DNA of 64,000 nucleotides from Candidatus Hydrogenedentota bacterium (GTDB lineage Bacteria; Hydrogenedentota; Hydrogenedentia; Hydrogenedentales; SLHB01): the NCBI GenBank assembly GCA_045863335.1, contig BTVY01000004.1, positions 1-64,000 of the forward strand, written 5' to 3'. Below the pieces are notes generated by a model that was not told the origin of the DNA, searched no databases, and saw nothing but the letters and a program-made list of their open reading frames with translations. This document shows positions 9,853 to 44,147 of this stretch, piece by piece. The position numbers and the translations under genes are program-made. Position 1 is the first letter of the stretch. Each line of letters starts with the position of its first letter.

Positions 9853-9881
<29 letters not shown>

Positions 9882-25944: not shown

Positions 25945-26019
25945 CGCGGCCTCCTTCGCTTGCGGTCCCTGCGACCACAAAAGGCACACGATACGTTTAA
26001 GGTTTGAAACTGTCCCGCG

Positions 26020-26308: not shown

Positions 26309-26435
26309 CAGTGGACTTCGGGGACTTCACCTGGAGTCCTACCAGCCTCTTGCCAATCTCCCTCTGTCCGATAGAATGGAATCACCCCGGCAAGCATTAC
26401 CCCCAAAGTTCGAAGTCTGGCTCGATACGGGGCAC
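26309..26435. repeat. Array repeat R1 (GACTTC iterons + motif + internally deleted recombinase tail + att core)
   Basis: gtggacttcggggacttcacctgg...ttgccaatctccctctgtccgatagaatggaat-caccccggcaagcatt...aaagttcgaagtctggctcgatacggggcac. Confidence 0.9.
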
Positions 26436-26705
26436 GCGTTCCATTGCGGAACGATATGCCTTTTCTAACTTAAACTTATTCAAGAATGCATCGTACTCTT
26501 CGGTCCGCGGGGTTCCAGTGCGTCTGAGAGATTTTTGGAGTATGGGCTTACCCGCTCGTGTGTAGGTGAAGCGAACGAACTAGGTACAGAGCTGGAACTG
26601 AACATCCACAAAAATCTCTTCATTCGGTGGCAAATTCCGTTTGTTGCTCCGCAGTAAATAAGTAGAGGCAATTGGGCCTCGACAGAAGTCGTAGGAGAAG
26701 GACTA

Positions 26706-27206
26706 ATGGAAACCAAAGAAACCGGACCGAAAGTCGCGTACCCGCAAGGTGATCGCGAGAGTGAGGTGCGCATCCACATCGATCACAAGCCGTACGACTC
26801 GCCCAATCCAACGACTGGAAAGGCGCTGTACACGCTCGGTCAAATCGTTGAAGACCTCGTGCTTCTCCGTCAGGTTCAGTGCGGTGGAGAAGTCATCGAG
26901 ATTCCCAACAGTACGGACGTGATTGAACTGCGGCCAGGCGAACAATTTCACACCGGACCGCGTGAGAAGACGGAAACCACGATCATCGTCAACGGCCGGC
27001 AGAGATCAGTATCCCAAAAACACCTGTCGTTTCTTGAAGTAGTTGCTCTCGCCTTTGACCCCATCCCCACCGGGCCAAACCTGATCTTCACGATTACCTA
27101 TTGGCACGGACCGCGTCCCAACCCGGAAGGAACGTTGTTAGAAGGATCGAAGGTCAGAATCGCCGAGGGTATGGTTTTCAATGTCACACAAACTGATAAA
27201 TCGTAG
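26706..27206 (+). CDS. Multi-ubiquitin-domain protein (bacterial Ubl)
   Basis: Two beta-grasp-like repeats (IHID.K.Y...TG.ALY; IIVNGR...LSF.EVV.LAF), ends FNVTQTDKS. Confidence 0.85.
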   Translation: METKETGPKVAYPQGDRESEVRIHIDHKPYDSPNPTTGKALYTLGQIVEDLVLLRQVQCGGEVIEIPNSTDVIELRPGEQFHTGPREKTETTIIVNGRQRSVSQKHLSFLEVVALAFDPIPTGPNLIFTITYWHGPRPNPEGTLLEGSKVRIAEGMVFNVTQTDKS

Positions 27207-28368
27207 CCCGGACCTGAATCGTCTACGTGACGAAGGTTACAATCTAGAGATTCGGTCCGGCTTTCTGCTGGTCAAGGACGTTCCTTATGTAAACTCTTCC
27301 AAAGAGGTCAAGAGGGGAACGCTTGTTACAAAACTTGTACTCGCGGGTGACGTGACCACACAGCCGGATAATCATGTCGCCTACTTCATAGGCGAGCACC
27401 CGTGCCGTCAAGATGGGCGCGAAATCCACCAGATCAAGAATCAGAGCAATAATCAGGTGCTTGCGGAGGACGTAGTGATTAATCACACATTCTCGGCAAA
27501 ACCAAAACCGACGGGTCAGTATCCCGACTACTATGCCAAGGTGAGCACCTATGTTGCCATTCTCTCGGGACCTGCCCAAGCGATTGACCCGTCTGCGGTG
27601 GCGACAATGCACTCACTAATTGAGCCAGATCGAGAAGATGATACGGCGGTGTTTAACTATGTCGACACAGCGTCAAGCCGGGCCGAGATCGGAACCATCA
27701 CGTGCAAATTGGAACTTGGAAACATCGCAATTGTCGGCATGGGAGGAACGGGGGGCTATGTGCTGGACCTCGTGGCAAAAACTCCCGTGAAGCAGATTCA
27801 TCTTTACGACGGCGATACCTTCTATCAGCACAACGCATTTCGCTCTCCCGGCGCACCATCGGTGAATGAACTCAGGGCCAAGCCAAGCAAGGCGGCATAC
27901 ATGCGTGAAGTGTATTCGAAGATGCATCGCGGAATAGTTGCTCATGAACATTACATCGATACCGGAAGTGTGGAACAGTTGCGGAGTATGGACTTCGTCT
28001 TCCTCTGTCTCGACCGGGGAGCCGCGAAGGAGCTGATCGTCCCGTGGCTGGAGGAGTTTGACGTGCCCTTCGTCGATGTCGGAATGGGCCTTCATGTCAA
28101 CGACGGCTCGCTGGGGGGTATCGTGCGCGTTACAGCCAGCACGTCTGCAAAGCGCGATCATGTCAGGTCTAGGATTCAGTTCTCTGATGGCGACGGCCAC
28201 AACGACTACGCACAGAACATTCAGATTGCCGACTTGAATGCCCTGAACGCGGCTTTGGCCGTCATCAAATGGAAGAAGCACTTTGGCTTTTACCGGGACT
28301 TAAGTCATGAACACAACAGCACATACACGTTGGACGGCAACGTCCTCGTTAATGAAGACTGCCCATGA
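27181..28368 (+). CDS. E2-like/ThiF (E1) fusion protein
   Basis: N-terminal LLVKDVPYVN...HTFS.KP domain; IAIVGMGGTGGY, DGD....HN.FR.PG, FVFLCLD. Confidence 0.88.
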   Translation: MSHKLINRSPDLNRLRDEGYNLEIRSGFLLVKDVPYVNSSKEVKRGTLVTKLVLAGDVTTQPDNHVAYFIGEHPCRQDGREIHQIKNQSNNQVLAEDVVINHTFSAKPKPTGQYPDYYAKVSTYVAILSGPAQAIDPSAVATMHSLIEPDREDDTAVFNYVDTASSRAEIGTITCKLELGNIAIVGMGGTGGYVLDLVAKTPVKQIHLYDGDTFYQHNAFRSPGAPSVNELRAKPSKAAYMREVYSKMHRGIVAHEHYIDTGSVEQLRSMDFVFLCLDRGAAKELIVPWLEEFDVPFVDVGMGLHVNDGSLGGIVRVTASTSAKRDHVRSRIQFSDGDGHNDYAQNIQIADLNALNAALAVIKWKKHFGFYRDLSHEHNSTYTLDGNVLVNEDCP

Positions 28369-28817
28369 GAACTACGAAGTTATCCCACCAATTCGTGGAG
28401 TTCATTCCCGATACTATCCAGGAGCGGACATTGTATGTGTCGGTGAAATTCGCAACGGTCGTCCACAAATGCTGCTGCGGTTGCGGAAAGGAGGTTGTCA
28501 CTCCCCTGAGCCCTACGGACTGGAAGCTCACGTACGATGGAAAGACAATCTCCCTCGCGCCTTCCATCGGGAACTGGGGCCTCGAATGCCGATCCCATTA
28601 TTGGATCAGGAACAATCGTGTCTACTGGGCGCCTTCCTGGTCACAATGGGAGATCCAGGCCGGGCGCGCGCATGACCGGATATCAAAGGAGGAGTACTTC
28701 GGCACCGGTCCCAAGTCACAGGCTGCCGTTTCCGACCAACCGCCGATTCCGGCCTCCCGTGAGGAAGGCGGAATGTGGTCGATACTGAGCAAGCTTTGGC
28801 GACGCTCGTTCAAGTAA
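28365..28817 (+). CDS. DUF6527-family protein (putative Ubl peptidase)
   Basis: HKCCCGCG..VVTPL, SL.PSIGNW...CRSHYWI; ATGA overlap with the E1 gene. Confidence 0.85.
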   Translation: MRTTKLSHQFVEFIPDTIQERTLYVSVKFATVVHKCCCGCGKEVVTPLSPTDWKLTYDGKTISLAPSIGNWGLECRSHYWIRNNRVYWAPSWSQWEIQAGRAHDRISKEEYFGTGPKSQAAVSDQPPIPASREEGGMWSILSKLWRRSFK

Positions 28818-29313
28818 GTTCGGCTCGTCATCTGGCGGACTGAGCTTAGCACATTATAAAGGACGTTTTTCTACACTAAGATGGCACAATCGATCAAATT
28901 GGCGACCGGCACTAACGGTCATTCCTCTACCGCGCTAGCAGTGACCAGGGACGAAAGCGCCTCCTGTCGGTTCGTCGGGTTGCCCACAGTCAACACCCGA
29001 AATTTGAACAGCCGTCACGCCTATGCGTGTACCGTGACCAGCTTATGTCTGTGGTGCAAATCCCGATACCCCCTCGGACCGGCGACTCTGAATCTGATTA
29101 CGGGGTTGCAAGAAGTTTCCCTAAATCTCACCCGTACCAGTAATTGGTCCGGTCCTTACCCGGCAAGCCAAGATACAAGGTCATTGGTTTCCGGAAACCG
29201 GTTTTGCCGTGTTCCGCTACCGCCTCGGTGGAATCTTCGCAAAAAGTCGCAAAATATGCCGATCCCGTGGCAGTGTATAATTACGGGCAGGCAAGGAGAG
29301 GTAGACGAGAGGA

Positions 29314-29958
29314 ATGGACAGAGAAGCCAATCGTATTCAACTACTCGAACAACAGCCTTGGGAAGAAATCATTCTAGGGCTGGACAAGTATGCGCTCCAG
29401 AAGGCGCGGCGCCTGTATTGGCCCACCGCCTCAGGGCGGCTCGACATACTGGCCAAGGGTGCATCCCCAACGGACATCGCGCGAGAGGCGATAGCGAGGC
29501 TGTTTGAAGGCACACGGGATTGGGACCCGGACAAAGAGCCTGATGTTCTTCGCTATCTCAAGAGTGTCGTCGACAGTTTGATGTCAGCTCTTGTGGAGTC
29601 GGCCGAAGTGGCAGAGGTGAGAGTCAGCGTCGCATATGATGAAACGGATGCTTCCACAGTGATAAGCCCTTCTCAGGCATCCGTTGTGGTGGAATCGACC
29701 GCGCTGCACCCAGCGCCACTTTCGCCAGAGCTTGTGGCGCAAGAGAACGAACTGCGGGAGCGAATATTGGCGGCCGTAGCTGGAGACGAATTCCTGGAAC
29801 TACTTGTGCTTTGTCTGGCTGAAGGCCACACCAAGCGCAGCGACATTGCAAGGGAGCTCGGCGTGTCGGCGGACGAAGTAACGAACCTTAGGAGGCGGCT
29901 GCAGCGCGTTGTTGACTGCGACGTGCTGGGGGTGACAGGGAAAGGGAGGCGAGAGTGA
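29314..29958 (+). CDS. ECF-sigma-like HTH protein
   Basis: DIAREAI..LF.G.R.WDP region-2-like segment; C-terminal HTH DIARELGVS.DEV.N.RRRL. Confidence 0.7.
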   Translation: MDREANRIQLLEQQPWEEIILGLDKYALQKARRLYWPTASGRLDILAKGASPTDIAREAIARLFEGTRDWDPDKEPDVLRYLKSVVDSLMSALVESAEVAEVRVSVAYDETDASTVISPSQASVVVESTALHPAPLSPELVAQENELRERILAAVAGDEFLELLVLCLAEGHTKRSDIARELGVSADEVTNLRRRLQRVVDCDVLGVTGKGRRE

Positions 29959-30410
29959 TGAGCAATCAAGATGGTAAAAGCTCGAGAGACTTTGCTTCCA
30001 ATCTCTTCGAGTTTCTGGAAGAAGAGGAGACATTAGGTAGTCTGGCCGATCTCAAGGAAGAGCTGCAAGCAAGCGGCATTGATCCAGAGGTAGAGACGCG
30101 CTGGGCAACTGAATACGCGGGCGAGCAGATTCGGATGCTGAAAACAAGGCGCATACAGGCTGCCTCGGAAACACGCAACGCGCTGTTGAACCAGCTTAAG
30201 ACACTCCGGACGCGCGGTTCTGCAGGAGTGGTCGCCGTGGTTGATCGACTGCTTAGCCAATTCCAATGTGGCCAACTCCAAGGCCTGGAAGCGATACAAG
30301 CCCAGTTCAGCAAACTGGAAAATCCTACCGAAGCCGACTTGCGCAGTCTCTTGGAAGATTGGGTAGAAATCGAGAAGTGGGGTGACAGTACCGAATCGGA
30401 CAAGGAGTAG
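29955..30410 (+). CDS. Hypothetical protein (possible anti-sigma-like partner)
   Basis: Overlaps the sigma-like stop; lies between it and the peptidase gene. Confidence 0.65.
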   Translation: MMSNQDGKSSRDFASNLFEFLEEEETLGSLADLKEELQASGIDPEVETRWATEYAGEQIRMLKTRRIQAASETRNALLNQLKTLRTRGSAGVVAVVDRLLSQFQCGQLQGLEAIQAQFSKLENPTEADLRSLLEDWVEIEKWGDSTESDKE

Positions 30411-30416
30411 AGTCTG

Positions 30417-31265
30417 TTGCCCGAACCATCTGAGGCACACGCACGAGCAATCGCGCTTCGGGTACTGAACGAATCCATGGTATGCGAACCCGCGCACCTC
30501 GATGTGTACGCCATCGCGTTCATGAGAAAGGTTCTTGTAGAAGAGGGGATGCTTCAGGGTGCCCAAGGGAGGCTAATTATTCGCGAAGGCCGCGGAAAGG
30601 TGCGGATAGATGAGACGATACCCGAGTTGGGAAGAAAGCGATTCGTCGCCGCGCATGAATTAGGCCATTTTGAACTACACTACTCCAAGGCGCCTCTGTT
30701 ATTTTCTTGCAAAGCAGAGTATTTCGATCTTTGGAGGCAGACGAATCCAGCTGCCGAGCGGGAGGCGAATGCGTTCGCTGCCGAATTTCTGATGCCAAAG
30801 CCTATGTTCGCGCCCCTGTGTACGGGGTGCAATCCTACCTTTGACGTCATTACGGACTTGGCCGGCACTTTCAAAACCAGCCTGACAGCGACGAGCCTTC
30901 GGTTCATTGATCTAACATCCGCCGCATGTCTCGTTGTGAGTTCCAATGCGGGCGTAGTCCAATGGAGCGTATCCTCAAAGGGCTTCGATCAAAGGATTCG
31001 GTCCGGGCAGTCCTTGAGCCAAAACACATACGCGTACGATTTTTTTCAAGGACAAGCGCTGCCCAAAGGACCTCAGGAAGTATTAGCCGCTGCTTGGTTT
31101 CCCGAGGCGCGTCTGAAGCCAGATGCCACCTTATTGGAAGACTCCGTTGGCATGTCGGCCTACGGATCGGTCCTGACGATTCTCCATATTCTGAATCTAA
31201 TCGAAGCCGAGGATGACCCGGTGGACGAACATTTTACACCCGATGGCCGTCGATATCGCTGGTAG
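30417..31265 (+). CDS. ImmA/IrrE-family metallopeptidase
   Basis: RKRFVAAHELGH, EREANAFAAEFLMP, F.TSLTA. Confidence 0.92.
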   Translation: MPEPSEAHARAIALRVLNESMVCEPAHLDVYAIAFMRKVLVEEGMLQGAQGRLIIREGRGKVRIDETIPELGRKRFVAAHELGHFELHYSKAPLLFSCKAEYFDLWRQTNPAAEREANAFAAEFLMPKPMFAPLCTGCNPTFDVITDLAGTFKTSLTATSLRFIDLTSAACLVVSSNAGVVQWSVSSKGFDQRIRSGQSLSQNTYAYDFFQGQALPKGPQEVLAAAWFPEARLKPDATLLEDSVGMSAYGSVLTILHILNLIEAEDDPVDEHFTPDGRRYRW

Positions 31266-31279
31266 CCTGATATCCCCCG

Positions 31280-31304
31280 TTCACCTGCCTCGATACGGGT
31301 CACA
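31280..31304. repeat. Array repeat R2 (collapsed: ttcacctg fused to att core)
   Basis: ttcacctgcctcgatacgggtcaca; the 19-mer ctgcctcgatacgggtcac is identical to R3 and R6. Confidence 0.8.
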
Positions 31305-31768
31305 CGCCTTTGCCGCTCACGGCAAGATTTCACAGACGAAGATTTGGCTCAACTGAGCCGTTTTTCGATTACGGTTGGTGGAGACAACTATTTGAATTCT
31401 ATCGGACAGTTCCGAATTCCGGTGAGGATTCGAACCGGAATTCTTCAAGCGGTCGGGGAAGTGGTGTGTACAGTGTGATTTTTTCCAATCTGCATCGGAA
31501 ACGGGAGGTGAAACGCATCCCTCAAGACTCTGTAAAATCATTAAGCCAACACAATCTCTTGATTTTTCTTGTCTCCTTCTTTTCTTGGCTTGCAGATTGC
31601 TTCTGGTATGTTGGGCAATAAGGACCGACACTGGAATTCCATCCACATCCTCCCGCAAGTCGTTGCAGCCACGTATTACGAATCGCGCATGACTCGAATT
31701 GTGGCTGTAGCTTGTACTAATTGCGCGCCCGCCAGAAGTGCCGTGCAGGGCTATACCGCATTCGTCAG

Positions 31769-32500
31769 TCATCCCAACCATTCCGTAACGAGAAGCTTAA
31801 TGTGTTCCGCTTCTGCCACACCACCAGCATGAATTAGGTTCCGTACTTGATGACCACGTCCTCGTTGGTACCGAAAAAAATACCGCACATACGTCTTTAC
31901 CCACTCGAGACCGGCAAAGCTTTGTTCCCCTTCAAGGAGCAGTAAACATGATTCACCCCTACAGAGGTACGATACAAGAGGTCGAAACAAAGCAGGCTCC
32001 CGACGGATTGCGTCTGCACAGATGAAGCGTACGTCACTTGCGGTGAATGTAAAATGACCAGAGGCCAGAACGTGCAGTCCCAACGCTTCAGCACTGTTTG
32101 TGACTATATCAAGAAGCGTGAAAGAACTCCTGATCGCTTCGCAATCCACCGCGCATTTCGCTAAACGCTCAGTGCATAAACTGCGATCAAGTAGCGGCTC
32201 GGCAAAGCTAGCTTCGGCCCGTGCACGAAAGCAGACTTGTTCGAGTGCGGCCGTAGCCCGCCATATTGAGCTTCGGCATTTGAAATCCTTTTGTTCCGGA
32301 AGGACATTCGCTAAGCCGCATCGAAGCGCATAAAAGTAATCCCTTGATCGCAGATAACCACATGTCGCGTACGACCCTCTAAGTGCATCTGGCTTGAGTA
32401 CCATCGCTCCTCTGAGGGTCGAGAGGGACGCCATGGCGGCTAGCCTAGTCTTCGCGCAACTGCCCAGGACCGCACTTAAGTGTCCGAGCTTCCGGAACAA
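31769..32500 (-). CDS. Nucleoside-diphosphate-kinase-like protein
   Basis: MVLKPDA near the N-terminus and VRNLIHA near the C-terminus resemble NDK motifs; real start probably near 32435. Confidence 0.55.
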   Translation of the reverse strand: MFRKLGHLSAVLGSCAKTRLAAMASLSTLRGAMVLKPDALRGSYATCGYLRSRDYFYALRCGLANVLPEQKDFKCRSSIWRATAALEQVCFRARAEASFAEPLLDRSLCTERLAKCAVDCEAIRSSFTLLDIVTNSAEALGLHVLASGHFTFTASDVRFICADAIRREPALFRPLVSYLCRGESCLLLLEGEQSFAGLEWVKTYVRYFFRYQRGRGHQVRNLIHAGGVAEAEHIKLLVTEWLG

Positions 32501-32936
32501 AACCCTTTACTAAGTCATCTGCGAGCCAGTCACGTACCTCCAAAGGATACAGGGTGATAGAGTGTAGATCCTTAAACGAGACCCACATCGGTTCATGAAG
32601 GTCGCCAGCCTTCGATTCCTCCAATTCCTCACCGCCCAAGGCGACTTGGCCTGAACAATAACTGCAGGCATAGAAGTAATGGTCACTATCGCCCACAAGG
32701 TCGTGGTGGTAAAGGAGTCGATCGACGGACACGACTACCGAACACTCTTCCAGAATCTCCCGCACTACAGCTTCCTCAACCGATTCACCGCACTCTACCC
32801 CCCCGCCGGGAAAAGTAAAATACACCCGGCCGTAGTGCGAACGTCTCATAAGCAAGACGGCCTGTTGGTGGAGAACGATTCCAACGGCGCGGGTGCCATT
32901 CGGCTTATCTAATCGCGTTATTTGTTTCATACCCAT
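32445..32936 (-). CDS. NUDIX hydrolase
   Basis: FPGGGVECGESVEEAVVREILEECS Nudix box. Confidence 0.92.
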   Translation of the reverse strand: MGMKQITRLDKPNGTRAVGIVLHQQAVLLMRRSHYGRVYFTFPGGGVECGESVEEAVVREILEECSVVVSVDRLLYHHDLVGDSDHYFYACSYCSGQVALGGEELEESKAGDLHEPMWVSFKDLHSITLYPLEVRDWLADDLVKGFVPEARTLKCGPGQLRED

Positions 32937-33065
32937 GCTTCACATTATTCTCAGCTACCGCCTTCGACTATCACGTAGACTGTCCCATTGCATACGGCAC
33001 TGCTTTATATGCCCCCCGGGAAACATCCGTACAGCCCACACTAAACCGTAAATTGGTGTCGAAAC

Positions 33066-34136: not shown

Positions 34137-34810
34137 TGTATGAGCCCTCGGCGCCTACAACGATCAAAGTGCTCGAGAACGATTTCTGTCAGAACTTCCG
34201 GTTCTACGCCATCGGTATTCAGGACCAGTACATCTGGTACATTTTCTTGAAGAAGGCGGAGAAGGCTTAGGTCCCATTCTTCAAATACGGATTGGTCGTA
34301 CTCCAAGAACCTGTAATTCTCTACCTTGGTGGTGCGGCCATTCTCAAAGTCACTTCTATGGCGGAGGATTCTCACCTGGAATGGCGTTGTCAGAAAAGCA
34401 CATCCGCCGTAACAAACAAGCAAAGACCGGAACGCTTCAAAGAAGTTCGTCATAATCGTGTCAGAGTCGATGATGGCTTTTGCCCAGGCCCTGTAGTGAG
34501 AACTCACCTTTACAGTGGTGTTACCGTTCCGCTCGCAAAAAAGTATGCCGTCTACAAGCGGTCCGAGCAAATAAACACTGCGCTTCAGCGTTTTCTCTAA
34601 CCGCGAGGAGCGTCCAACCCCTGCAAGGTATGTCAGGCGGCAGTCAAGATACTGAAGCGGTGACCGAACAAGAGGACCAATGACAACTGAAATCGGTCGC
34701 ATGCACCGCTCGCCCAGCGCGCTCGCGAGATGCCGAGCGAGCGTCTTCTTTCCCGAGCAATCGAGCCCTTCTATTAGATACGGGCGGCAATTGCGACGAT
34801 GTAGCATCAT
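34133..34810 (-). CDS. Thymidylate-kinase-like P-loop protein
   Basis: LIEGLDCSGKKTLA Walker A. Confidence 0.65.
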   Translation of the reverse strand: MMLHRRNCRPYLIEGLDCSGKKTLARHLASALGERCMRPISVVIGPLVRSPLQYLDCRLTYLAGVGRSSRLEKTLKRSVYLLGPLVDGILFCERNGNTTVKVSSHYRAWAKAIIDSDTIMTNFFEAFRSLLVCYGGCAFLTTPFQVRILRHRSDFENGRTTKVENYRFLEYDQSVFEEWDLSLLRLLQENVPDVLVLNTDGVEPEVLTEIVLEHFDRCRRRGLIQ

Positions 34811-35982
34811 GACACCAGTCTTGGCGAAGATACGGTGTCATCTAAACTACCATGCGGGGCTAGGTACAAGGGTTCACCCACTCGGAGACTTTCCTGTACG
34901 AGCTGTTCTACTTGTGCCAAGGCCACCGTGCCAAGTGAAAGTAGATCAAGAAGGTGGAGAGGGCACGGTGGAGAACTAGCTACAAAGGCGTAATTCCACG
35001 AATCCTGCCCATCCGGCAGACAGTGTACAGGTTCTCTCGTTCTCAACGCAAAGCCAAGATCTTCGAGCGCAGACAGAGCCAAACCTATCCTCCCATATGT
35101 ATTGCCGAAATGAGTCACTCTTGCTCCAAGACAGGAGAGCACCGCCTCAACGATAGCGATGAGGCGTGCGCCCACTACCGTAGTCCCTGAGACAAGTCCT
35201 TCCGCGATGTCATGGAGGTTAGTACTCTTCACTGGCCCTGCCCTGCCCGATAGCGGGTCGATCACAATTTGGCAAAAGGTTCCGCTTCCCGCGGCCCACG
35301 CAACTCGGTATATGCTCAAGTCCTCTGAATGCCCGAAAGCTAGTTTTGTATACTCAGAAGCATGGTCAGCAATGGCCATTCGCGCGAGGACGGACTCAAT
35401 AGTCCGAGCGTAGGAATCCAAAACCCGGGCAATGACAAAACGTTCTGGAGCCTTTGTTAGACTCCGTAAGTGGACATCGGGTAACGAACAGAAGACATAT
35501 CTTGAAAGGTCAAAATTGCTCATGTTCACAACTTCACCCAAAGTTGTATTTCCACTTTCACTGAGATTAGTCCTCAGACAGTCATACTGCATCGCTACTG
35601 CATTTCTTTCAGACGCCGTAAGTCCAGAACCGGATCGCACCCCGTTGTCAAACACTGGGTGGAGAAACTGCCAAGCCAAGTGCGAGGGCATCCACCATGG
35701 CACGTATGCAAGAAAACTTGGGAGTTCGAACAGATTGGCACGCACGGCATCACTCGACGGTAGGGTTGGAATACCCGTACCGCTGAAGCGGATAAACCTG
35801 AGCGTGCATCCTCCCCCTTTTCGCGGTACCTCGTTTAATATTCCGATGTTCTCGCGAACGATACTAATATGTCGGTGATAATATACGGGCATGCGGGATG
35901 ATGGGTTCACTGTAGGATGCCACCCATCGGTATAGGAGAAGCTCCCAGAGTACTCTACTGCCGTCACTGGAGTAACTCCCAA
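34807..35982 (-). CDS. Hypothetical protein
   Basis: 391-aa ORF overlapping both neighbours in the operon. Confidence 0.7.
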   Translation of the reverse strand: MGVTPVTAVEYSGSFSYTDGWHPTVNPSSRMPVYYHRHISIVRENIGILNEVPRKGGGCTLRFIRFSGTGIPTLPSSDAVRANLFELPSFLAYVPWWMPSHLAWQFLHPVFDNGVRSGSGLTASERNAVAMQYDCLRTNLSESGNTTLGEVVNMSNFDLSRYVFCSLPDVHLRSLTKAPERFVIARVLDSYARTIESVLARMAIADHASEYTKLAFGHSEDLSIYRVAWAAGSGTFCQIVIDPLSGRAGPVKSTNLHDIAEGLVSGTTVVGARLIAIVEAVLSCLGARVTHFGNTYGRIGLALSALEDLGFALRTREPVHCLPDGQDSWNYAFVASSPPCPLHLLDLLSLGTVALAQVEQLVQESLRVGEPLYLAPHGSLDDTVSSPRLVS

Positions 35983-37442
35983 GGGGTTAAGGGTGACTCG
36001 CGAAGTAACTCACGATAGACGGCCAGATTACGGTCCAGTTCATTTCTTTTTGCATCCGTGCTCCCGGAGCGAGGCAGGTGATGGACGTGGAAAACACCAG
36101 TACTAAGAACTGGGCTCACGAAGAAACCTCGCGCAATCATCTTAGCTGCAAAACTGACGTCTTCGGGCCCCCAACCTTCGAAAGCTTTGGCAAATCCTAC
36201 CTCTGTCGCCGCGTTGCGTCTAATACTGAAGTTGTTGCCTTTGACCATAAAAGGAAGGTCTACGGGCCCCAAATTCGAGTAGTATCCAAAAGTACGAAAG
36301 TTATCAGTAGATGCCAGCGGGGTAACCCTAACTCGTTCTGGTACTTGCCGGAGTCCCGGCCAGTTCGCGGGGTAAGTGGCAACAGTTCGAGAATCAAGCG
36401 ACGTGTCTGGGAGACGGTCCGGGATCGCAGTGTTGTTGATGTCCTCTCTCAAGGACACAAGTATCAGGTTCGGAAAAACCCTGTGCCTCAACCAGTGATT
36501 TATGATGTAATTCCGCGAGAGGTACGTATCTGCATCCAAGAAGAAGACAATACTGCCCCGCGCAACAGCGAGTCCCAGATTTCTGGCTCCCGCGCAATGC
36601 TGGCGGGAGGTAGAACGGATAACTGCGACCGAAGGACTAATCTTAGTAAAGTCACACTTGGTAGTACAGCCGTCATCAACAACGATGATCTCCGCCTTCA
36701 CGTTGTGCGGAAGTGGCTCTAAAGCGAGCAACACCGATGACACAGTGTTCGCTATTGTGCTATCAGCGCGATAGCAGGGGATGACAAACGAGATGGTATC
36801 TGAAACGAGGTCGAAGTGGGAAGGAGTATGGTGACAGTCGCCGTAGACGAAGTCGACGTTGAAGAGCGATTGACAGAGATGTGCTGCCAATGAATAGTCA
36901 TTGGATTTCCTTTGGAGAAAGTCAACCGTAGTCCCAAAAGAGGCAGACTGGGAAACAGGTGTAAGGTAGCCGAGGCACGAAAGAGCGTCAGTTCCTGCGT
37001 GAATCGGGAAAGCTGCTGCAACAGAGCATGAGGCAAGGTCCCTTGATGCGAACCGACGCAAGTTCTCTAGGGTCACTGGTACGAAGCCTTGAGTTGCCCA
37101 AAAACATCGTGATTCTCGAGCCTTTGTCTCTAACAATAACGTAAAGTTTTCGCAATCTCGAAGTTCGGGAGCGCTAAGAAGGGCAAAAGTTGAGTTCGTG
37201 TTGATAGAGAAGGACTGCCCAGAGGACGAGAGGCGAAGTGATGGGTAGCCGGGTGGTCTGAGGAGCAAGAGCTCGGAATGTCCGAGGCGCCAAAGAATAC
37301 TAGGAATCAACGGAGGCATACCGGCGCAATGAAAATGCGATAAGTCATCCATAGCACGCCCTGTCCTGGGGTGGTTGCACATTTGGAAAGGTATGCTTGA
37401 CCATGTTCGAGGCAGCATCTCCTCAGCTCTCAAAATGAGCAC
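35964..37442 (-). CDS. Glycosyltransferase family 2 with unknown N-terminal domain
   Basis: SFVIPCY, IIVVDDG, ARN.G, FLDAD, FEGWGPED. Confidence 0.88.
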   Translation of the reverse strand: MLILRAEEMLPRTWSSIPFQMCNHPRTGRAMDDLSHFHCAGMPPLIPSILWRLGHSELLLLRPPGYPSLRLSSSGQSFSINTNSTFALLSAPELRDCENFTLLLETKARESRCFWATQGFVPVTLENLRRFASRDLASCSVAAAFPIHAGTDALSCLGYLTPVSQSASFGTTVDFLQRKSNDYSLAAHLCQSLFNVDFVYGDCHHTPSHFDLVSDTISFVIPCYRADSTIANTVSSVLLALEPLPHNVKAEIIVVDDGCTTKCDFTKISPSVAVIRSTSRQHCAGARNLGLAVARGSIVFFLDADTYLSRNYIINHWLRHRVFPNLILVSLREDINNTAIPDRLPDTSLDSRTVATYPANWPGLRQVPERVRVTPLASTDNFRTFGYYSNLGPVDLPFMVKGNNFSIRRNAATEVGFAKAFEGWGPEDVSFAAKMIARGFFVSPVLSTGVFHVHHLPRSGSTDAKRNELDRNLAVYRELLRESPLTPWELLQ

Positions 37443-37549
37443 ACATACCGCGATGGGTCAGCACATGGAGAGCTTTAGCAATTGCAGTATAGCAGACGGC
37501 GTACCAAAGGACATCGTCTTTAAGGAACTTTGTTTAAGAAGCTGACCTT

Positions 37550-37801
37550 CAGTAGACTTCGAGACTTCAGGGACTTCACCCGGGGCCTGGTCTCCCCCTT
37601 GCCAATCTCCCCCTGTCCGATAGAATGGAATGGCCCATCGAGTCAGTCTGAAAAATCGTTTTCCTCTTGACCACCTTCCGGCAAAATGACGTTTTCCTCG
37701 GCAGTTGTACGGCAATGTTTGATCACTCCGGCAAGCATTACCTCCAAAGTTCGAAGTCTGCCTCGATACGGGTCACAATAAGCCCAAACTTCGAACTTTA
37801 G
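37550..37801. repeat. Array repeat R3 (complete; att with 12-bp inverted arms)
   Basis: Three GACTTC, conserved motif, open 43-codon recombinase tail, AAAGTTCGAAGT (37746-57) and ACTTCGAACTTT (37788-99). Confidence 0.92.
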
Positions 37802-37893
37802 AATTTGGCTCAACGAAGCCATTTATGAGGAACGAAAAACCGTAGATTCTGAGGATTTTTGCCTTGTCTCATTGAATCCACTCGGGAATCGAA

Positions 37894-38361
37894 CTAACTT
37901 TTCGAATTGGCTTGTTGGTTTTGATTTAAGTGAAGGTACTGCACATATTTCTCTCTTATTTCGGGTAGCCGCTCTAGGTTCCCCCGGCTTAGGATGGAGA
38001 CGAGCTCGTCAATCAAGGATAGGGTATCTTTGATTGGTTTTAATGCGGATCGCGGATTCATTCTAAGATGCAACGCTACCCGTTCGAGTGTGGGCGTGTT
38101 CGATTTGGGTTGAGTGCCGTCATGGCGTGTATGGATGGTGAAGAGTTCTTCTTCATCCTGAACAAATTCAAATAATTGCTGGTGGGTTTTCTTAGTGGAA
38201 TTCTCGGACGAATCTTCGTTCTCCATAGAATCAAGGGCTGAACCAATAGAATCCAACAACTGAGTGTTGAGAGCTTGGAGTTTCTTGCGAGCATCCGGAA
38301 GTTCGAGTCCCGTTGACCCTTCTAACCCCCTTAATTGTGCCTCAAGATCTGTGTATGTCAT
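37894..38361 (-). CDS. Hypothetical protein (cassette cargo)
   Basis: Helical 155-aa ORF in an AT-richer block. Confidence 0.6.
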   Translation of the reverse strand: MTYTDLEAQLRGLEGSTGLELPDARKKLQALNTQLLDSIGSALDSMENEDSSENSTKKTHQQLFEFVQDEEELFTIHTRHDGTQPKSNTPTLERVALHLRMNPRSALKPIKDTLSLIDELVSILSRGNLERLPEIREKYVQYLHLNQNQQANSKS

Positions 38362-38420
38362 TAGCCTAAGAATATAGAAACAGGGCACAGCCCGCAAGAC
38401 TCTGCCCTGTTTCATCAAAA

Positions 38421-38627
38421 TTATCTACTGGCAGGGTCGCTACACTCGTCGCAACTACCCCGATGCTCTACGCCGCTATTTCCGGTATCCTTCTCGACCC
38501 AGGCATGGCAATGGTCACTTTCTCCCTTGCCGGTAGAGAAGACATCAACTTGATGGCTTGATTCCTTGATGATTATGCGATCATCACCGCTACGATGTAC
38601 TTCGGGCTTTGGAGCCACTGTTTTCAC
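38421..38627 (-). CDS. Small His/Cys-containing hypothetical protein
   Basis: Strong RBS aaggag before GTG; HCH...H..CxxC. Confidence 0.6.
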   Translation of the reverse strand: MKTVAPKPEVHRSGDDRIIIKESSHQVDVFSTGKGESDHCHAWVEKDTGNSGVEHRGSCDECSDPASR

Positions 38628-38761
38628 CTCCTTCGTCTTCGTTGAGTGTCAGTGCCTCCTCTTCTTGCACCCCAATTGTACCCGGCAATCTATCATTTTG
38701 TCCAATTTTAGGACAATTGAATTAAATCTCACTTCGTATGCGGTATATGCGGGATCGCATG

Positions 38762-38790
38762 CCAAAAGAGCCCCGATGGGGCTCTTTTGG
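38762..38790. terminator. Bidirectional intrinsic terminator
   Basis: ccaaaagagcccc-gat-ggggctcttttgg. Confidence 0.8.
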
Positions 38791-39039
38791 TTACGCTTTT
38801 TCTTCGATTTTTTCCAGTCGCCGGCGATGATCGCCAAGGTGGTCGGCAAAGTAATCCAAACGATTCTCGACACTGGTTAGCCTTAACTCTACCCGGGCTA
38901 ACCTGTTTTCAACTTTATCCAAACGATTCTCGACGCCATCGAATCTTTCGTCCACGGCATTAAATCGTTCGTCCACCGCGTCAAAACCGCATTTGACCAT
39001 CAGTGCTAAATCATCAAGAGTGGTTTTCTTCTTCGGCAT
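38791..39039 (-). CDS. Small heptad-repeat coiled-coil protein
   Basis: TLDDLA.MV..GF then repeated VDERF/VENRL heptads; terminator directly after the stop. Confidence 0.8.
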   Translation of the reverse strand: MPKKKTTLDDLALMVKCGFDAVDERFNAVDERFDGVENRLDKVENRLARVELRLTSVENRLDYFADHLGDHRRRLEKIEEKA

Positions 39040-39086
39040 ATTACTTTAAGTTTAATGCTTGTGTGTTGTCTGTCAAGATTGAAAAA

Positions 39087-39312
39087 CAGTAGACTTCCGG
39101 ACTTCGGGGACTTCACCTGGGGTCTACCCACCTCTTGCCAATCTCCCTCTGTCCGATAGAATGAAGTGGCCGATAGGATTAGTCTAAAAACTCCTCTTCC
39201 TCTTGACCATCCTTCGGTACCGAAGCAAAATCAGCCATGTGTGTACCGCAATATTCGACCACTCCGGCAAAGATTGAGTCCAAAGTTCGAAACCTGCCTC
39301 TATACGGGTCAC
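39087..39312. repeat. Array repeat R4 (complete, diverged tail)
   Basis: GACTTC x3, ttgccaatctccctctgtccgatagaatg, tail DPYRGRFRTLDSIFAGVVEYC...FLD*, ctgcctctatacgggtcac. Confidence 0.92.
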
Positions 39313-39385
39313 AATAATTTGCCTCCGGCGGCAAAAAATACCACCTAGACAAGGTGAAAATTTGTGTCAAAAGACACCCTTAGGA

Positions 39386-39541
39386 CTACTTAGTCTGGTT
39401 GTTCTGATACTCCGATTCCTCGACTATTTTATAGGCAACCTCGACAAACCGCCTGAGATTCTCTTCGGCTGCCTCAAGCCCATTATCCGAGAGTTGAGGG
39501 AACAATCGTCTTAATCGATTAAGACTTTCCTTGTGGGTCAT
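39386..39541 (-). CDS. Small protein, paralog of 42325-42564
   Basis: L.P.LS...LE.AEENLRRFVEVA shared with 42325-42564. Confidence 0.75.
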   Translation of the reverse strand: MTHKESLNRLRRLFPQLSDNGLEAAEENLRRFVEVAYKIVEESEYQNNQTK

Positions 39542-39579
39542 ATAAATCAAGGGATTATGGTTTATACACATCGACCATC

Positions 39580-39607
39580 TTGACAATCCCACCAAACCCG
39601 CTAGAAT
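39580..39607 (+). promoter_or_regulatory. Sigma70-type promoter
   Basis: TTGACA-16 nt-TAGAAT. Confidence 0.7.
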
Positions 39608-39612
39608 GAAGA

Positions 39613-39699
39613 TGTGCTTGTGGGCGCAAGCCCCGTTCAGCTAAGGATTTCCTAAGCTGAAGGCAAGCACACCAAAGGAGCCCCTGTGGGGGCTTTTTT
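39613..39699 (+). ncRNA. Putative small structured RNA (three-way junction plus terminator)
   Basis: P1 TGTGCTTG/CAAGCACA, P2 GGGC-GCAA-GCCC, P3 TTCAGCTAAGG-ATTT-CCTAAGCTGAA, then AGCCCC..GGGGCT-TTTTT; no ORF. Confidence 0.65.
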
Positions 39700-39701
39700 G
39701 G

Positions 39702-40163
39702 TTACTCATCTTCGATATTCTTGTCATGTAACCGTTGGCCATTCTTGAGTTTTGAATCCGGCATGACGCTCCAGAAAATAATATTGCCGTCACCAATCCG
39801 TCTGAGAATTACCCGGATCTTGATTTTATTCTGGCCAGTGATGGCGGCGAAGCCCCAGTAGGTAGTCTGCTTCAAGGCAGTGAAGCCACTTTTGGATTTC
39901 TTGCCAATCGGACTCATCGTTTCGCGGAATTCTTGAAGAGTTCCTGATTTCCGAATCACATCAAGCGCTAGTGGCAGCAGGCGGAATTTAAGCATCTGCT
40001 CATCCTTGGACCGCTCTCGCCTGGCTGAAAATTGAAGATGATGAAAACCGTCCGAATTGAGTCTAATCGGAGACTGAAAATAAGGGCAGAGGATCTCCTT
40101 CTGGCGGGAGTAGATAGTCTCGGCCTTACGTTTGTATTCGGCGAACTTTTCCGCTTCAATCAT
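39702..40163 (-). CDS. Basic hypothetical protein, possibly a BECR/RelE-fold RNase toxin
   Basis: GFHHL motif, K/R-rich, C-terminal beta-meander IRVILRRIGDGNIIFWSVMP; the fold call is inference. Confidence 0.6.
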   Translation of the reverse strand: MIEAEKFAEYKRKAETIYSRQKEILCPYFQSPIRLNSDGFHHLQFSARRERSKDEQMLKFRLLPLALDVIRKSGTLQEFRETMSPIGKKSKSGFTALKQTTYWGFAAITGQNKIKIRVILRRIGDGNIIFWSVMPDSKLKNGQRLHDKNIEDE

Positions 40164-40200
40164 AGCGTCATCATAATATCGGCAAAAGCCGAGTCTGCCA

Positions 40201-40268
40201 AGTAGACTTCAAGACTTCAGGGACTTCACCTGGGGCGTACCCGCCTTTGCTAATCCTCCTTTTATCCA
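40201..40268. repeat. Array repeat R5 (iteron half only)
   Basis: agtagacttcaagacttcagggacttcacctgggg plus a degenerate ttgctaatcctcctttatcc. Confidence 0.8.
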
Positions 40269-40365
40269 AATGTGTGTGCACATTACCATAGACCCTTGAC
40301 GCGATTTGTAAGACTGGTAGTATTGACTCTAGATTCCACAACTAGAACCTAAGAGGAGAAATGAT

Positions 40366-40620
40366 ATGTTACTCAACAACACGGAGTTTTGGCTACTTGA
40401 GCACATCGAAAGAAATCAAACTGTGCCCAAAGAACTGTGCAACTTAGCCCGCAAGCTTGCGTCGTTAGGATTGCTTTGTCTTGGCTACCACAGAGACGGG
40501 ACTAAGGTTAAGGAGACGGGTAGTTTAACTTTCTTGGGGCGGCAGATTGTGAGATTGGAACGAATTGAGCGTAGTCCGTTTCGGTGCGCTCTTCAATCTT
40601 TCTTTGCACCTTTTATTTGA
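40366..40620 (+). CDS. Small hypothetical protein inserted between R5 and R6
   Basis: RBS gaggag; promoter-like TTGAC boxes upstream; hairpin plus T-run downstream. Confidence 0.6.
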   Translation: MLLNNTEFWLLEHIERNQTVPKELCNLARKLASLGLLCLGYHRDGTKVKETGSLTFLGRQIVRLERIERSPFRCALQSFFAPFI

Positions 40621-40718
40621 TTGCCCACAATACCTATCTTGTAATGACGCGGCACCTATTAGTTTAGATCAACTAAATGACTAGGTGCTTTTCTTTTTCT
40701 GTTTACGTTCAGTAATCA

Positions 40719-40899
40719 CTCTTGCCAATCTCCCCCTGTCCGATAGAATGGAATGGCCCATAGAGTCAGTCTGAAAAATAGTCTTCCTCTTGACCGCCTT
40801 CCGACACCATGTCCATATTTTCCACATTTGTACGGCAATGTTTGATCACCCCGGCAAGCATTGCCTCCAAAGTTCGAAGTCTGCCTCGATACGGGTCAC
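40719..40899. repeat. Array repeat R6 (native 3' end of recombinase 2 with att core)
   Basis: Closely matches R3; core aaagttcgaagtctgcctcgatacgggtcac at 40869-40899. Confidence 0.92.
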
Positions 40900-42328
40900 C
40901 GTTTGTCGGTTTTCGCCGATTAGCGATGATGTCGAAGGGAGAGGATAGCTCAACCACAACGTTTCTTTCGTTCACCGCCAGGTTCGAAGTCAGCGTTCCG
41001 AGCAATTCTCGCTTCGTGTCTTTTAGAGCCATTTCGTAAAGCACTGGAGCCGAATTTGCCCGTTCGAAGATCTCACGCACCCGATATAGGACATCATTTG
41101 CAGAGGACTCCAATTCTGTCCGGGCTTTTTCAGCCGCCATCCGGTCGGCAATCAGGTTCTCCTTTCTTTCTTCATACATTTTGCGGTCAATAGCCTGATC
41201 GAGATAGGCGTCGGTCAGTCGGTTGAGTCTGTCTGTGACTCGTTTAATCCGAAGTTCCAGGGCTTTGGTCAGTCCGGCTTTCGTTTCTAACCACGACGCC
41301 CGATGCGCATCGATGAGTTGGGTCAACTTCTTCCTTTCGCGATCGGAGAATTCCAGAGAGCCTAGTGTTGCGACTACCGCTACATCTATGGCTTCCTCAC
41401 GGACGCCTTTCGTCGGACAAGTTCGAGAGTGGCACCGGTAGTAAGTGTGCCCCTTCTGGCATTCCCCAGACATCGTATAGCCGCAATGACGGCATGTGAT
41501 GAGTTTTCGGTAGAGGAAGCTATTTCTTCGCGTGCGAACGGGTGTCCGGCCGGTGAGAATGGCTTGAACACGGTCAAAGACGATACGGCTGATTAAAGGT
41601 TCATGATTGCCCTCGAAAACTTCGCGGGTTCGGGCGAGTCGGATCAGACCCGTATAGAAGGGATTGTTCAAGAGCCTTGAAATGCCGTTCAGCGAAATAC
41701 TCGTTCCGTGACGGTTACGAAGGCCTGATTGATGCAATTCCGCCCGAAGCGTGTCCAGCGTATATCGGCCGGTGGCGTACAGATCAAAAGCCCGCTTCAC
41801 CGACGGTGCCGTCGATGGGTCGAGAGTCTTCTTGGCGCCACCGCCATTATCCAAGTATCCAAGTGGGGCAGGCAACGGATAAAACCCTTGTTTCAGCCGG
41901 CCATAGAAGCCCTTGCGGCTTTCCTCTCGGAGATTCCGAATGTAGTCAGCAGCAACGACAGCCTGAATGTCTGCCGATAATCTTCCGCCACGCGTGTGCA
42001 GATCCAAGCCTTCATTCGCAAAGTGGATCTTTATCCCCCTATCGATGAGTTCACCGAGCTTTGCCCAGTCGCGTAGATTCCGGGCGCTACGGTCGATCTT
42101 GTGAATGACGATTCCGCTGGCCTTCCCTTGTCTTAACCGGCTTAACATTTGGCCGAAGACCGGCCGACCGCTCTTGGCCGCTGTCTGGCGCTCTTCGAAC
42201 CATTCCACGATCTCTAACGATTCGCGCTCGCAGTAGCGCACAATGGCGTCTCGTTGCTCCTGGAGCGAAACGCCCTTTTCTCCTTGTTTGACGGTGGATA
42301 CGCGCACATAGGCGAAGACTTTGTTCAT
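40766..42328 (-). CDS. Large serine recombinase 2
   Basis: YVRVST..Q, HKIDRSARN, L.NPFY.G, Zn ribbon CRHCG...YYRC...C, coiled coil. Confidence 0.95.
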   Translation of the reverse strand: MNKVFAYVRVSTVKQGEKGVSLQEQRDAIVRYCERESLEIVEWFEERQTAAKSGRPVFGQMLSRLRQGKASGIVIHKIDRSARNLRDWAKLGELIDRGIKIHFANEGLDLHTRGGRLSADIQAVVAADYIRNLREESRKGFYGRLKQGFYPLPAPLGYLDNGGGAKKTLDPSTAPSVKRAFDLYATGRYTLDTLRAELHQSGLRNRHGTSISLNGISRLLNNPFYTGLIRLARTREVFEGNHEPLISRIVFDRVQAILTGRTPVRTRRNSFLYRKLITCRHCGYTMSGECQKGHTYYRCHSRTCPTKGVREEAIDVAVVATLGSLEFSDRERKKLTQLIDAHRASWLETKAGLTKALELRIKRVTDRLNRLTDAYLDQAIDRKMYEERKENLIADRMAAEKARTELESSANDVLYRVREIFERANSAPVLYEMALKDTKRELLGTLTSNLAVNERNVVVELSSPFDIIANRRKPTNGDPYRGRLRTLEAMLAGVIKHCRTNVENMDMVSEGGQEEDYFSD

Positions 42329-42564
42329 CGTCGCTTTGGATTAGTGATTGGTGATGATCGGATCGTAGATCGCGATTCGGAATCTGTCAACGGTGGGGTT
42401 GTGGACTGATTCACGCTATCTTGTTCGGCCTGCTCACAGATGCGGATAGCGACCTCCACAAACCGCCGGAGATTCTCCTCCGCGATCTCCAATTGTTCTT
42501 CGGAAAGCTCTGGGTACAGTCCGGCCAATTCCGCCCGCGAAGGCCTCTCCTTGTCGCTATTCAT
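42325..42564 (-). CDS. Small protein translationally coupled to recombinase 2
   Basis: ATGA overlap with the recombinase start; paralog at 39386-39541. Confidence 0.7.
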   Translation of the reverse strand: MNSDKERPSRAELAGLYPELSEEQLEIAEENLRRFVEVAIRICEQAEQDSVNQSTTPPLTDSESRSTIRSSPITNPKRR

Positions 42565-44012: not shown

Positions 44013-44049
44013 TGTACCCCTGCGAAGTCCCTGAAGTCCCGATGTCCAC
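44013..44049. repeat. Inverted copy of the GACTTC iteron cluster (possible origin)
   Basis: gtacccctgcgaagtccctgaagtcccgatgtccac resembles the reverse complement of R1/R3/R4/R5. Confidence 0.75.
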
Positions 44050-44147
44050 AGAAACTTGCCGGTGTAGGCAAAGCAAACACCCTTCGGAGTCGCTCATCTT
44101 GCGGTAAACTGGAAAGGCACAAAGGTCGAAATTATTCGCAAACAAAC

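Follow-up and report, generated by a model that had tools for sequence, protein, structure and literature searches.

What brings a row of unrelated gene blocks to stand beside a recombinase gene, each bounded by a copy of that gene's own end? The question is raised by a 64,000-nucleotide (nt) stretch of a Candidatus Hydrogenedentota genome (assembly GCA_045863335.1, contig BTVY01000004.1, positions 1 to 64,000 of the forward strand; hereafter the window, always meaning the whole stretch), in which the region of 26.3-40.9 kb adjoins the gene of a large serine recombinase, rec-2. A first-pass annotation, made by a model from the letters alone, had read this region as an integron-like serine-recombinase platform with cargo held between six repeats, R1 to R6. 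Its anatomy, the recurrence of the arrangement and the breakpoints at a common core were confirmed, while its rep gene, its nuclease, its RNA, its toxin-antitoxin labels for the window and its claim of novelty had to be given up. The array probably arose by site-specific accretion, in which non-autonomous cassettes would have collected at the 3' end of the recombinase's own gene.

The recurring unit measures about 230 nt in full. On the plus strand it opens with three GACTTC iterons, which a short spacer separates from a box (TTGCCAATCTCCC.CTGTCCGATAGAATG); the recombinase tail and then the core come next. The tail part corresponds, in reverse complement, to the final 43 codons and the stop of the recombinase gene, and the core ends in ...CTGCCTCGATACGGGTCAC. 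All six repeats were found within a few bases of where they had been placed, including the internal deletion of R1 and the collapse of R2:

40766..42328, minus strand, large serine recombinase (rec-2), 520 amino acids (aa), Pfam domains Resolvase, Recombinase and Zn_ribbon_recom
40686-40899, minus strand, R6: box, stop, last 43 codons and core, without iterons; lies in the recombinase gene and is the tail in current use
40201-40267, R5: iterons and a diverged half box; an 84-aa gene lies between R5 and R6
39088-39312, R4: complete unit, 76% identical to R3
37551-37776, R3: complete unit
31283-31303, R2: core alone (about 21 nt), with a hairpin common to the right flank of R4
26303-26435, minus strand, R1: distal decayed unit with two iterons, box, tail with an internal deletion of about 92 nt, and a core with 2 mismatches

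Allowing up to three mismatches, five copies of the 19-nt core CTGCCTCGATACGGGTCAC lie between 26417 and 40899, all on the plus strand, against 0.03 expected from shuffled sequences, of which 0 of 100 reached five. A 28-nt core is found four times against 0.00 expected, and the iteron pair GACTTCNNGGACTTC five times against 0.11 expected, in direct orientation in R1, R3, R4 and R5 and inverted at 44024-44038. Four of the five cores are embedded in the unit of about 230 nt with its iterons, promoter-like box, 43-codon tail and core, and no further copy of the unit was found in the 6.75-Mb host genome. When the copies are aligned, their similarity ends at one common base, directly after GGGTCAC, and the flanks beyond are unrelated. 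This breakpoint (40899) is the second base of rec-2 codon 477; the conserved DNA past it encodes GDPYRGRLRT, the core occupies codons 477-487, and the enzyme's own site of recombination takes up about codons 470-487. Recombinase residues 478-520 are matched by the R3 tail at 74% and by the R4 tail at 48% amino-acid identity. Tail copies keep open frames ending at a common position even when diverged (53 codons in the related locus L027), with a pooled ratio of nonsynonymous to synonymous differences (pN/pS) of 0.45.

Rec-2 itself matches PF00239 Resolvase (2e-28), PF07508 Recombinase (3.5e-14) and PF13408 Zn_ribbon_recom (1.9e-8), all above cut-offs, and its catalytic Ser11 in the R9-V10-S11 motif is invariant across 39 aligned homologues. 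Followed in its direction, the array consists of recombinase codons 1-476, then tail, box, 84-aa gene, iterons and cargo A, then tail, box, iterons and cargo B, and then tail, box, iterons and cargo C. At the far end, a core alone with cargo D is followed by the decayed tail, box and iterons of R1. The blocks and their smaller features are:

39313..40899, minus strand, cassette A, adjoining the recombinase and including the R6 tail and box and the R5 iterons
40366..40620, plus strand, 84-aa gene of cassette A
39702..40163, minus strand, 153-aa gene of cassette A
39386..39595, minus strand, 69-aa open reading frame (ORF) of cassette A
39318-39357, terminator-like hairpins of cassette A
37777..39312, minus strand, cassette B: R4 unit and the ORFs 37894..38418, 38421..38627, 38649..38873 and 38791..39039 (all minus)
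31304..37776, minus strand, cassette C: R3 unit and a seven-gene minus-strand cluster
26436..31303, plus strand, cassette D, whose recombinase side keeps just about 21 nt of core (R2)

The cluster of cassette C comprises a GT2 glycosyltransferase (35964..37442), two uncharacterised genes, a GT4/GT1 glycosyltransferase (33066..34136), a NUDIX gene (32445..32936) and two further uncharacterised genes. On the plus strand of cassette D, Pfam identifies Multi_ubiq (26706..27206), DUF6791 with a ThiF E1 domain (27181..28368) and DUF6527 (28365..28817), accompanied by three uncharacterised genes and a CapP-like peptidase (30417..31265, plus strand; PADLOC capP 2.5e-55, with weak E1-E2 matches also). 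We take this operon to resemble bacterial ubiquitin-like defence operons and CapH/CapP regulators. Cargo D is oriented against the recombinase, the other three with it. Apart from the tails (residues 478-520), no fragment of the rec-2 body or of the neighbouring gene for a 449-aa ATPase was found in the blocks by tblastn, a search that missed the 30%-identical second large serine recombinase of the window (rec-1, 9853..11373, an unrelated enzyme) and hence excludes closer remnants only. Discrete, recombinase-free blocks bounded by the rec-2 3'-end site, as originally described, are thus present, and decayed integrases, looked for in each block, were not seen.

Other labels of the cargo fared less well. 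The small proteins of cassettes A and B gave no family match; for the 153-aa protein, proposed to be nuclease-like, a protein atlas gives only hypothetical clusters with an LPD3 hint, and the name was dropped. Neither RNA families (Rfam at gathering thresholds) nor tRNA genes (ARAGORN) were detected in the window, which leaves the RNA assigned to cassette A unsupported and means that no tRNA target is involved. Toxin-antitoxin cargo was not seen in the window, MazF being present in the relative L091 only. As separate observations, the best promoter-like match of the region (TTGACA-16-TAGAAT, 11/12; 39580-39607, plus strand) runs antisense into the 153-aa gene of cassette A and could serve an antisense RNA or a small toxin-antitoxin-like pair, with no match in Rfam. 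The 69-aa ORF is similar (40-49% over 35-55 aa) to small ORFs that directly precede the recombinase gene in L055, L065 and L070, and may be an accessory protein carried as cargo.

The design recurs well beyond this genome. Homologues of rec-2 at 45-57% identity were gathered from genome contigs (5 loci) and from one metagenome scan (80 kept of at least 452 confirmed), their hosts being environmental bacteria of several phyla. Each locus was examined by blastn of the gene's last 200 nt plus 150 nt downstream against the locus itself, by tblastn of the last 58 residues against the locus with the gene masked, and by scanning the locus's own 26-nt core on both strands. Of 82 loci whose recombinase ORF is complete, 13 hold tail copies; of the 49 that extend 1500 nt or more past the gene, 12 do, with one to three copies each. 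L058 and L060 among them are near-duplicates. All copies lie downstream, in direct orientation and on the recombinase strand, spaced by 152 nt to 5.7 kb. A reversed-peptide control yielded 0 matches, and 350 nt taken as a control from the gene's 5' part gave 0 extra matches in the 82 loci. The own-core scan returned 11 extra direct and 0 inverted matches in 9 of 80 loci, and the repeat in each of those nine starts no more than 2 nt away from where the core begins (gene nt ~1414-1435). Across proteins that are only 45-57% identical, the core DNA is kept, with 24-31 of 33 positions matching the consensus in 56 of 80 loci.

The locus L067 holds three cassettes whose unit of core, tail, stop and GTCCCC iterons follows the same design as the window. 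Within 86 related loci the recombinase was found in 86, and the window cargo is almost without homologues; the variation in block number and content for which the first-pass annotation had suggested searching related genomes was found among distant relatives with the same design. The cassette sets of the relatives run against the recombinase in five cases, with it in three and in mixed orientation in two, and their cargo includes:

L067: HerA with SIR2; glyoxalase
L051: KAP NTPase
L091: MazF
L095: AAA_15/OLD-TOPRIM with UvrD (Gabija-like)
L079: Ser/Thr kinase
L014: HTH_17 protein

Closer to the host, rec-2 homologues at E <= 1e-30 occur in 4 of 60 other genomes of host relatives (29-52% identity, none in the same genus), the 240-nt unit gave a single weak core-like match in 132 other genomes of the host order, and neither the rec-2 protein nor the box pattern had a match in a viral collection. 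Three arrangements among the relatives deserve mention in their own right. In L033 (2862-3099), a second tail follows 152 nt after the first without cargo, resembling an empty cassette; in L058/L060 (11469-11871), the tail is duplicated in frame, giving a recombinase ORF of 610 aa. L024 (G057:C53) carries two rec-2 homologues head to tail and 37 nt apart (10850-12475 and 12512-13912; 52% and 50% identity), the second being shorter (466 aa), an arrangement that recalls paired ccrA/ccrB. The G021 locus was set aside as uninformative, its contig ending 215 nt past the recombinase and its end matching another contig end through an unrelated 54-nt repeat.

On the other side of the recombinase gene, a second family accompanies the array, with the following features:

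42325..42564, minus strand, 79-aa ORF overlapping the rec-2 start codon
42642..43991, plus strand, P-loop ATPase of 449 aa with Walker A GDYGSGKT, Walker B LIIDEAD and a winged-helix-like C-terminal part
44017..44053, minus strand, inverted iteron set directly after the ATPase gene

In 18 related loci the ATPase and recombinase genes diverge. At least six of these (L014, L038, L044, L057, L072 and L091) have GTCCC-type iterons at the 3' end of the ATPase gene, in many cases paired as inverted copies; unlike there, the iterons of the window and of L067 accompany every tail. We take the iterons to be putative binding sites of the ATPase, through which excised cassettes might replicate or be acted on in trans. 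The 449-aa protein has no match in Pfam, NCBIfam or PDB sequence and profile searches, Pfam being empty also for 14 homologues, and its AlphaFold2 model (predicted local distance difference test score, pLDDT, 68) finds only weak likeness in the PDB by Foldseek (MCM at E 0.013, Orc1 at probability 0.77). More than 5290 homologues exist, the named ones being nearly all "hypothetical" and none of the 120 listed having a Pfam domain on record; the protein is a member of a large unannotated family linked to mobile elements. Its homologues P0003-P0005, at 77-79% identity, probably mark the closest platforms. The 79-aa ORF, which has no protein family and no tblastn match in the 86 related loci, is a candidate accessory or directionality factor from its position alone.

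A further observation concerns the box. In R3, R4 and R6 (37599-37626, 39135-39162 and 40722-40749, plus strand) it contains a sigma-70-like promoter, TTGCCA-16-TAGAAT (10/12), that reads antisense over the recombinase tail and core, and at R1 would read into the plus-strand operon of cassette D. No equivalent was found in the units of L067, so that it is not taken as a family feature.

How could such an array arise? According to the scheme that we favour, four or five recombinase-free cassettes would have been inserted successively into the site at rec-2 codons ~470-487. In the direction of rec-2, each cassette would bring the conserved downstream half-site, a new 43-codon tail with its stop, a box with three GACTTC iterons (in this element) and its cargo, and would end, usually after a terminator-like hairpin, in a variable upstream half-site; the incoming circle would thus hold downstream half-site, tail, cargo and upstream half-site in that order. 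The recombinase gene would stay whole upon insertion because the incoming cassette supplies a new tail, and the previous tail would be displaced one place outward each time. As old tails move outward, cassette A by the enzyme would be the newest, and the decayed units R2 and R1, farthest away, the oldest. Recombination of core with core would release a circle with one complete site, able to enter another platform. The role of rec-2 as catalyst, the formation of circles and a function of the iterons in letting the ATPase act on excised cassettes are what we infer from this arrangement.

The predicted structure of rec-2 is compatible with an exchange of tails. In its AlphaFold2 model (mean pLDDT 82), residues 481-483 and 506-520 fall below 50 and the helix 485-500 is confident, giving an ill-defined linker at the site, then the helix and then a disordered acidic end (506-520). 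The presumed crossover point lies within the low-confidence linker before the terminal helix; therefore, the exchanged piece would consist of linker, one helix and a floppy tail, a module that by the model is plausibly swappable without wrecking the fold.

Data on movement come from Logan contigs (k=31), not raw reads, of the runs X1 (likely source), X2 (sister), X3 and X6; X6 leaves cassettes A, C and D uncovered and X3 leaves C and D, gaps that carry no information. In X3, an independent study, contigs span 39309-40843, about 1.5 kb of cassette A, with 2 differences, and unlike sequence starts exactly before 39309 and behind 40899, both at cores. Cassette A is near-identical there but stands between other neighbours, the X3 pieces on the ATPase side differing at 1-10%. 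In X6, from another study, a 537-nt contig at a depth of ~5 joins 39293 back to 37758 (a step of 1536, with a side of 55 nt and an ambiguity of 7), the junction expected of a circular or tandemly duplicated cassette B. Of the junctions or circles that had been proposed as a check, this single joint and the X3 breaks at cores are the candidates, and no joint was listed in X1 and X2. As leads only, the flanks in X3 were read by hand over 30 letters each: the consensus past 39309 gives a short diverged tail-like peptide in the tail frame, and that past 40899 an in-frame stop, more like the end of another cassette than the body of a recombinase.

The same breakpoint can be placed on the presumed site. 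Attachment (att) sites of large serine recombinases measure about 40-50 bp and consist of two imperfectly inverted half-sites flanking a central dinucleotide. In R3, two perfectly matching inverted arms of 12 nt (37746-37757 and 37788-37799) have ggg|tcac at their centre, and the X3 breakpoint at R4 matches this centre. Because the two coincide, crossover probably takes place within GTGAC (coding strand), right where the shared sequence begins. The downstream half-site is strongly conserved and the upstream half variable.

Several observations weigh against accretion of cassettes by rec-2. Over 15 cassette sites, the upstream half-sites reach a mean best inverted-arm match of 6.67/12 versus 6.23 in controls, an arm being clear only at R3 (11/12; 0 of 500 controls) and marginal at L027, and the absence of a shared upstream arm is unusual for a dimer-bound serine-recombinase site. 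Large serine integrases are normally directional. Pairs of tails within the window have a pN/pS of 0.8-0.9, almost neutral. Of the 49 related loci with enough downstream sequence, 37 have no tail copy, so that this recombinase family must have some role besides cassette capture. The X6 joint is the sole junction, carried by one contig at the 90% likeness setting, where joints below 95% can be spurious or cross-organism. X1 and X2 list no joint at a flat depth of 15-20, a weak point since contigs cannot show rare events. The X1 contigs break at every repeat, leaving the order of A, B and C without independent verification; the link of D to C is independently assembled in an X1 contig covering 26349-37627, from R1 to R3 via R2. 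The name Rep for the 449-aa protein also had to be rejected: iterons are present as in an iteron replicon, no Rep family is matched and the fold matches to MCM and Orc1 are weak, and we keep it as an iteron-linked P-loop ATPase.

Much of this would suit a static record, in which cassettes entered site-specifically and left hybrid junctions no longer usable by a directional integrase. Directionality, the lack of joints in X1 and X2 at flat depth, the decay of R1 and R2, the near-neutral tails of the window and upstream half-sites without a common motif all agree with such fossil scars. They are nevertheless unlikely, as cassette A is almost unchanged in another context while the X3 platform genes differ by up to 10%, as X6 holds an end-to-end junction of cassette B, and as substrate and product sites look alike, with a constant downstream and a variable upstream half, so that no attL/attR asymmetry is visible.

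Another process could act on the repeats without any recombinase. With 75-90% pairwise identity across 180-230 nt, they might support homologous recombination causing the duplications, deletions and reshuffling among samples, and, with one polymorphism tolerated, the position of the X6 switch is defined no more closely than to some 30 nt around the core. We consider this very unlikely, since the window, X3 and nine other loci have their breakpoints at the first base of the core and not along the repeat, since R2 bounds a block with just ~21 nt of homology, and since the original entry of cassettes with unrelated cargo would go unexplained.

There is only the slimmest chance that whole sister elements, equipped with a recombinase and an ATPase of their own, integrated in tandem and were then trimmed by random deletion. 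Tandem accretion followed by decay is described as common for integrative elements in PMC5357655, and G057 has the two adjacent recombinase homologues mentioned above; yet the ends of the deletions would have to coincide to the base at 5 of 5 sites here and in nine other loci, and no block holds a recombinase-body or ATPase fragment (closer remnants only being excluded). Chaining of unrelated metagenome contigs through similar repeats has next to no probability, for although the host genome is metagenome-derived (105 contigs) and the independent k=31 assembly breaks at each repeat, X1 depth is even over all blocks, one X1 contig spans R1-R3 through R2, and no fewer than 12 unrelated contigs of other assemblies, one of them of 8.4 Mb, are built in the same way.

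Tandem accretion of cassettes by large serine recombinases also has precedents. The statement of the first-pass annotation that no named serine-recombinase equivalent exists was wrong, the staphylococcal cassette chromosome (SCC; PMC11470126) and the Dehalococcoides islands (PMC3146451) being of the same kind in the accounts that these sources give of them. According to PMC11470126, SCC and SCC-like tandem defence cassettes are moved by Ccr recombinases, and excision as circles has been shown experimentally. As far as they are portrayed there, SCC and SCCmec (CcrAB, CcrC) share with the array large serine recombinases, insertion into a gene's 3' end that the incoming element restores, tandem cassettes of which many lack a recombinase, separation by direct repeats of the target end, and defence-rich cargo. 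They differ in the target, which here is the recombinase's own gene and not rlmH (orfX); therefore, each cassette would rewrite the last 43 residues of the enzyme. Furthermore, rec-2 scores only 63-95 bits on the NCBIfam Ccr models (CcrB 95.4 with a cut-off of 900, CcrC 66.4 with 900, CcrA 63.3 with 700), a repeat of about 230 nt with box and iterons takes the place of a short integration-site sequence, the hosts belong to several phyla of environmental bacteria, and the platform sits inside a larger mobile island.

The ssrA islands of Dehalococcoides, in the description given in PMC3146451, stand in tandem downstream of one target, with direct repeats of 20 bp from the target's 3' end between them; an integration module is missing from some, which are viewed as cis-mobilisable, and the integrase DsiB is CcrB-like. 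Judged by the same description, they differ in that the target is the gene of the transfer-messenger RNA, most carry their own integration module and no recombinase tail is exchanged.

The array resembles integrons in that the recombinase keeps its place beside the point of entry, that the youngest cassette is its immediate neighbour and that adaptive and defence genes of unrelated kinds are collected in order. Integron cassettes, too, are shared between platforms (10.1101/2024.07.02.601686). As a functional analogy, the term integron-like therefore stands; the defining features of integrons are absent. All three that were looked at, a tyrosine recombinase with attI, attC sites and co-oriented promoterless cassettes, have other counterparts here. 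The recombinase is of the serine type and not an IntI tyrosine-type enzyme, and its site lies within the recombinase coding sequence. The boundaries are direct repeats of coding tail and core, with hairpins that lack attC-like conserved ends, no attC model having been run. The cassettes are operons of 1.5-6.5 kb in either orientation, apparently with their own promoters, and in view of this mixed orientation they are not promoterless units of the integron style.

A recombination site within an integrase gene is not new as such. Archaeal integrases of the SSV1 type have their att site within the integrase gene. The serine-integrase element IME_Spy2096_SNF2 is a further example, with an att site inside its integrase gene (PMC5357655). 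In both types the site serves the element's own integration into its host, and stacks of foreign cassettes are not part of the description in that source. In site-specific accretion of the ICESt1/ICESt3 type, as treated in PMC5357655 (citing Pavlovic 2004 and Bellanger 2011), incoming elements integrate into the attL or attR of a resident element and form tandem arrays in which integrase-free parts are moved in cis or trans; in that treatment, these elements differ by their tyrosine integrases, their tRNA or ribosomal-protein target genes and their size of 5-40 kb with transfer modules. In the open-access literature searched, no description of cassette arrays at a serine recombinase's own 3' end was found. 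What is new is the combination of the own tail as target, a tail exchanged with each insertion, ATPase-linked iterons on the cassettes and a wide distribution in an unannotated family. The system is SCC-like in mechanism and integron-like in outcome, and a member of neither family.

Tandem stacking by a large serine recombinase has so far been known mainly from staphylococcal SCC islands and Dehalococcoides, and the present findings suggest that an SCC-like stacking logic operates in a large unannotated family of environmental recombinases with at least 452 relatives. Self-targeting would make a compact capture module that any larger mobile element can carry, and would explain one route by which SIR2-HerA, Gabija-like, Ubl/E1 with CapP and MazF systems are shuffled between islands. 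The family offers natural pairs of recombinase and site with a defined conserved half-site of ~30 nt, as well as a naturally occurring test of C-terminal swaps in a serine recombinase. For the mining of cassette cargo, it provides a signature in the form of the recombinase's last ~45 codons repeated downstream of the gene. Going further, one may tentatively picture a widespread serine-recombinase counterpart of integrons, a dedicated capture platform found in several phyla with its insertion site in the recombinase's own last codons, in which each cassette would rewrite the C-terminal helix, possibly tuning activity or partner choice, and would bring iterons as binding sites of the platform's ATPase, so that excised circles could persist, or be treated as satellite mini-replicons, on the way to another platform; in this extended form we find the idea rather doubtful.

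The platform sits inside a larger mobile island, one backbone gene of which lies beyond the array:

20715..21926, minus strand, TraG/HerA-like ATPase (Pfam), backbone gene of the larger element

In 16 related loci a TraG/HerA-like gene is linked to the recombinase, starting in L015 just 37 nt past the recombinase stop, while in the window it is 18.8 kb away from the recombinase. Its adjacency in relatives and its distance here fit an insertion of the array between two backbone genes. The right-hand genes, for DUF932, a 182-aa ORF and GNAT, keep their synteny in L041. The stretch that separates R1 from the backbone holds a CAP12/Pycsar-type TIR effector (24161-25354, minus strand; PADLOC TIR 1e-42), a helix-turn-helix (HTH) protein (25552-25989, minus strand) and three direct repeats of ~23-46 nt (CGGAA...GCGCG) at 26046-26182; it has no homologue in related loci and no further core bounds it.

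At a larger scale, the comM gene of the host is split. Its N-terminal part (residues 31-386, with one TGA inside) occupies 8820-9887 and abuts or ends in the last codons of rec-1. Two C-terminal fragments (residues 380-540), at distances of 58 and 72 kb from it, are found outside the window at C4:68325-68807 and C4:81513-81995, with 91% and 61% amino-acid identity to an intact, foreign-looking comM that sits between the parts at 48569-50191, whose DNA is only ~67% identical to the comM of congeners. The split looks like tandem accretion of two or three elements with only one matching recombinase. Probably, it reflects a second accretion, on a larger scale, driven by rec-1 at comM, the rec-1 gene also ending at its junction. 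Further along the island backbone, HerA (DUF87), SIR2_2 and DUF2130 follow in a row (12369-16829, minus strand); together they look like a defence module of the SIR2-HerA type, and a similar HerA and SIR2 pair forms the cassette cargo of L067.

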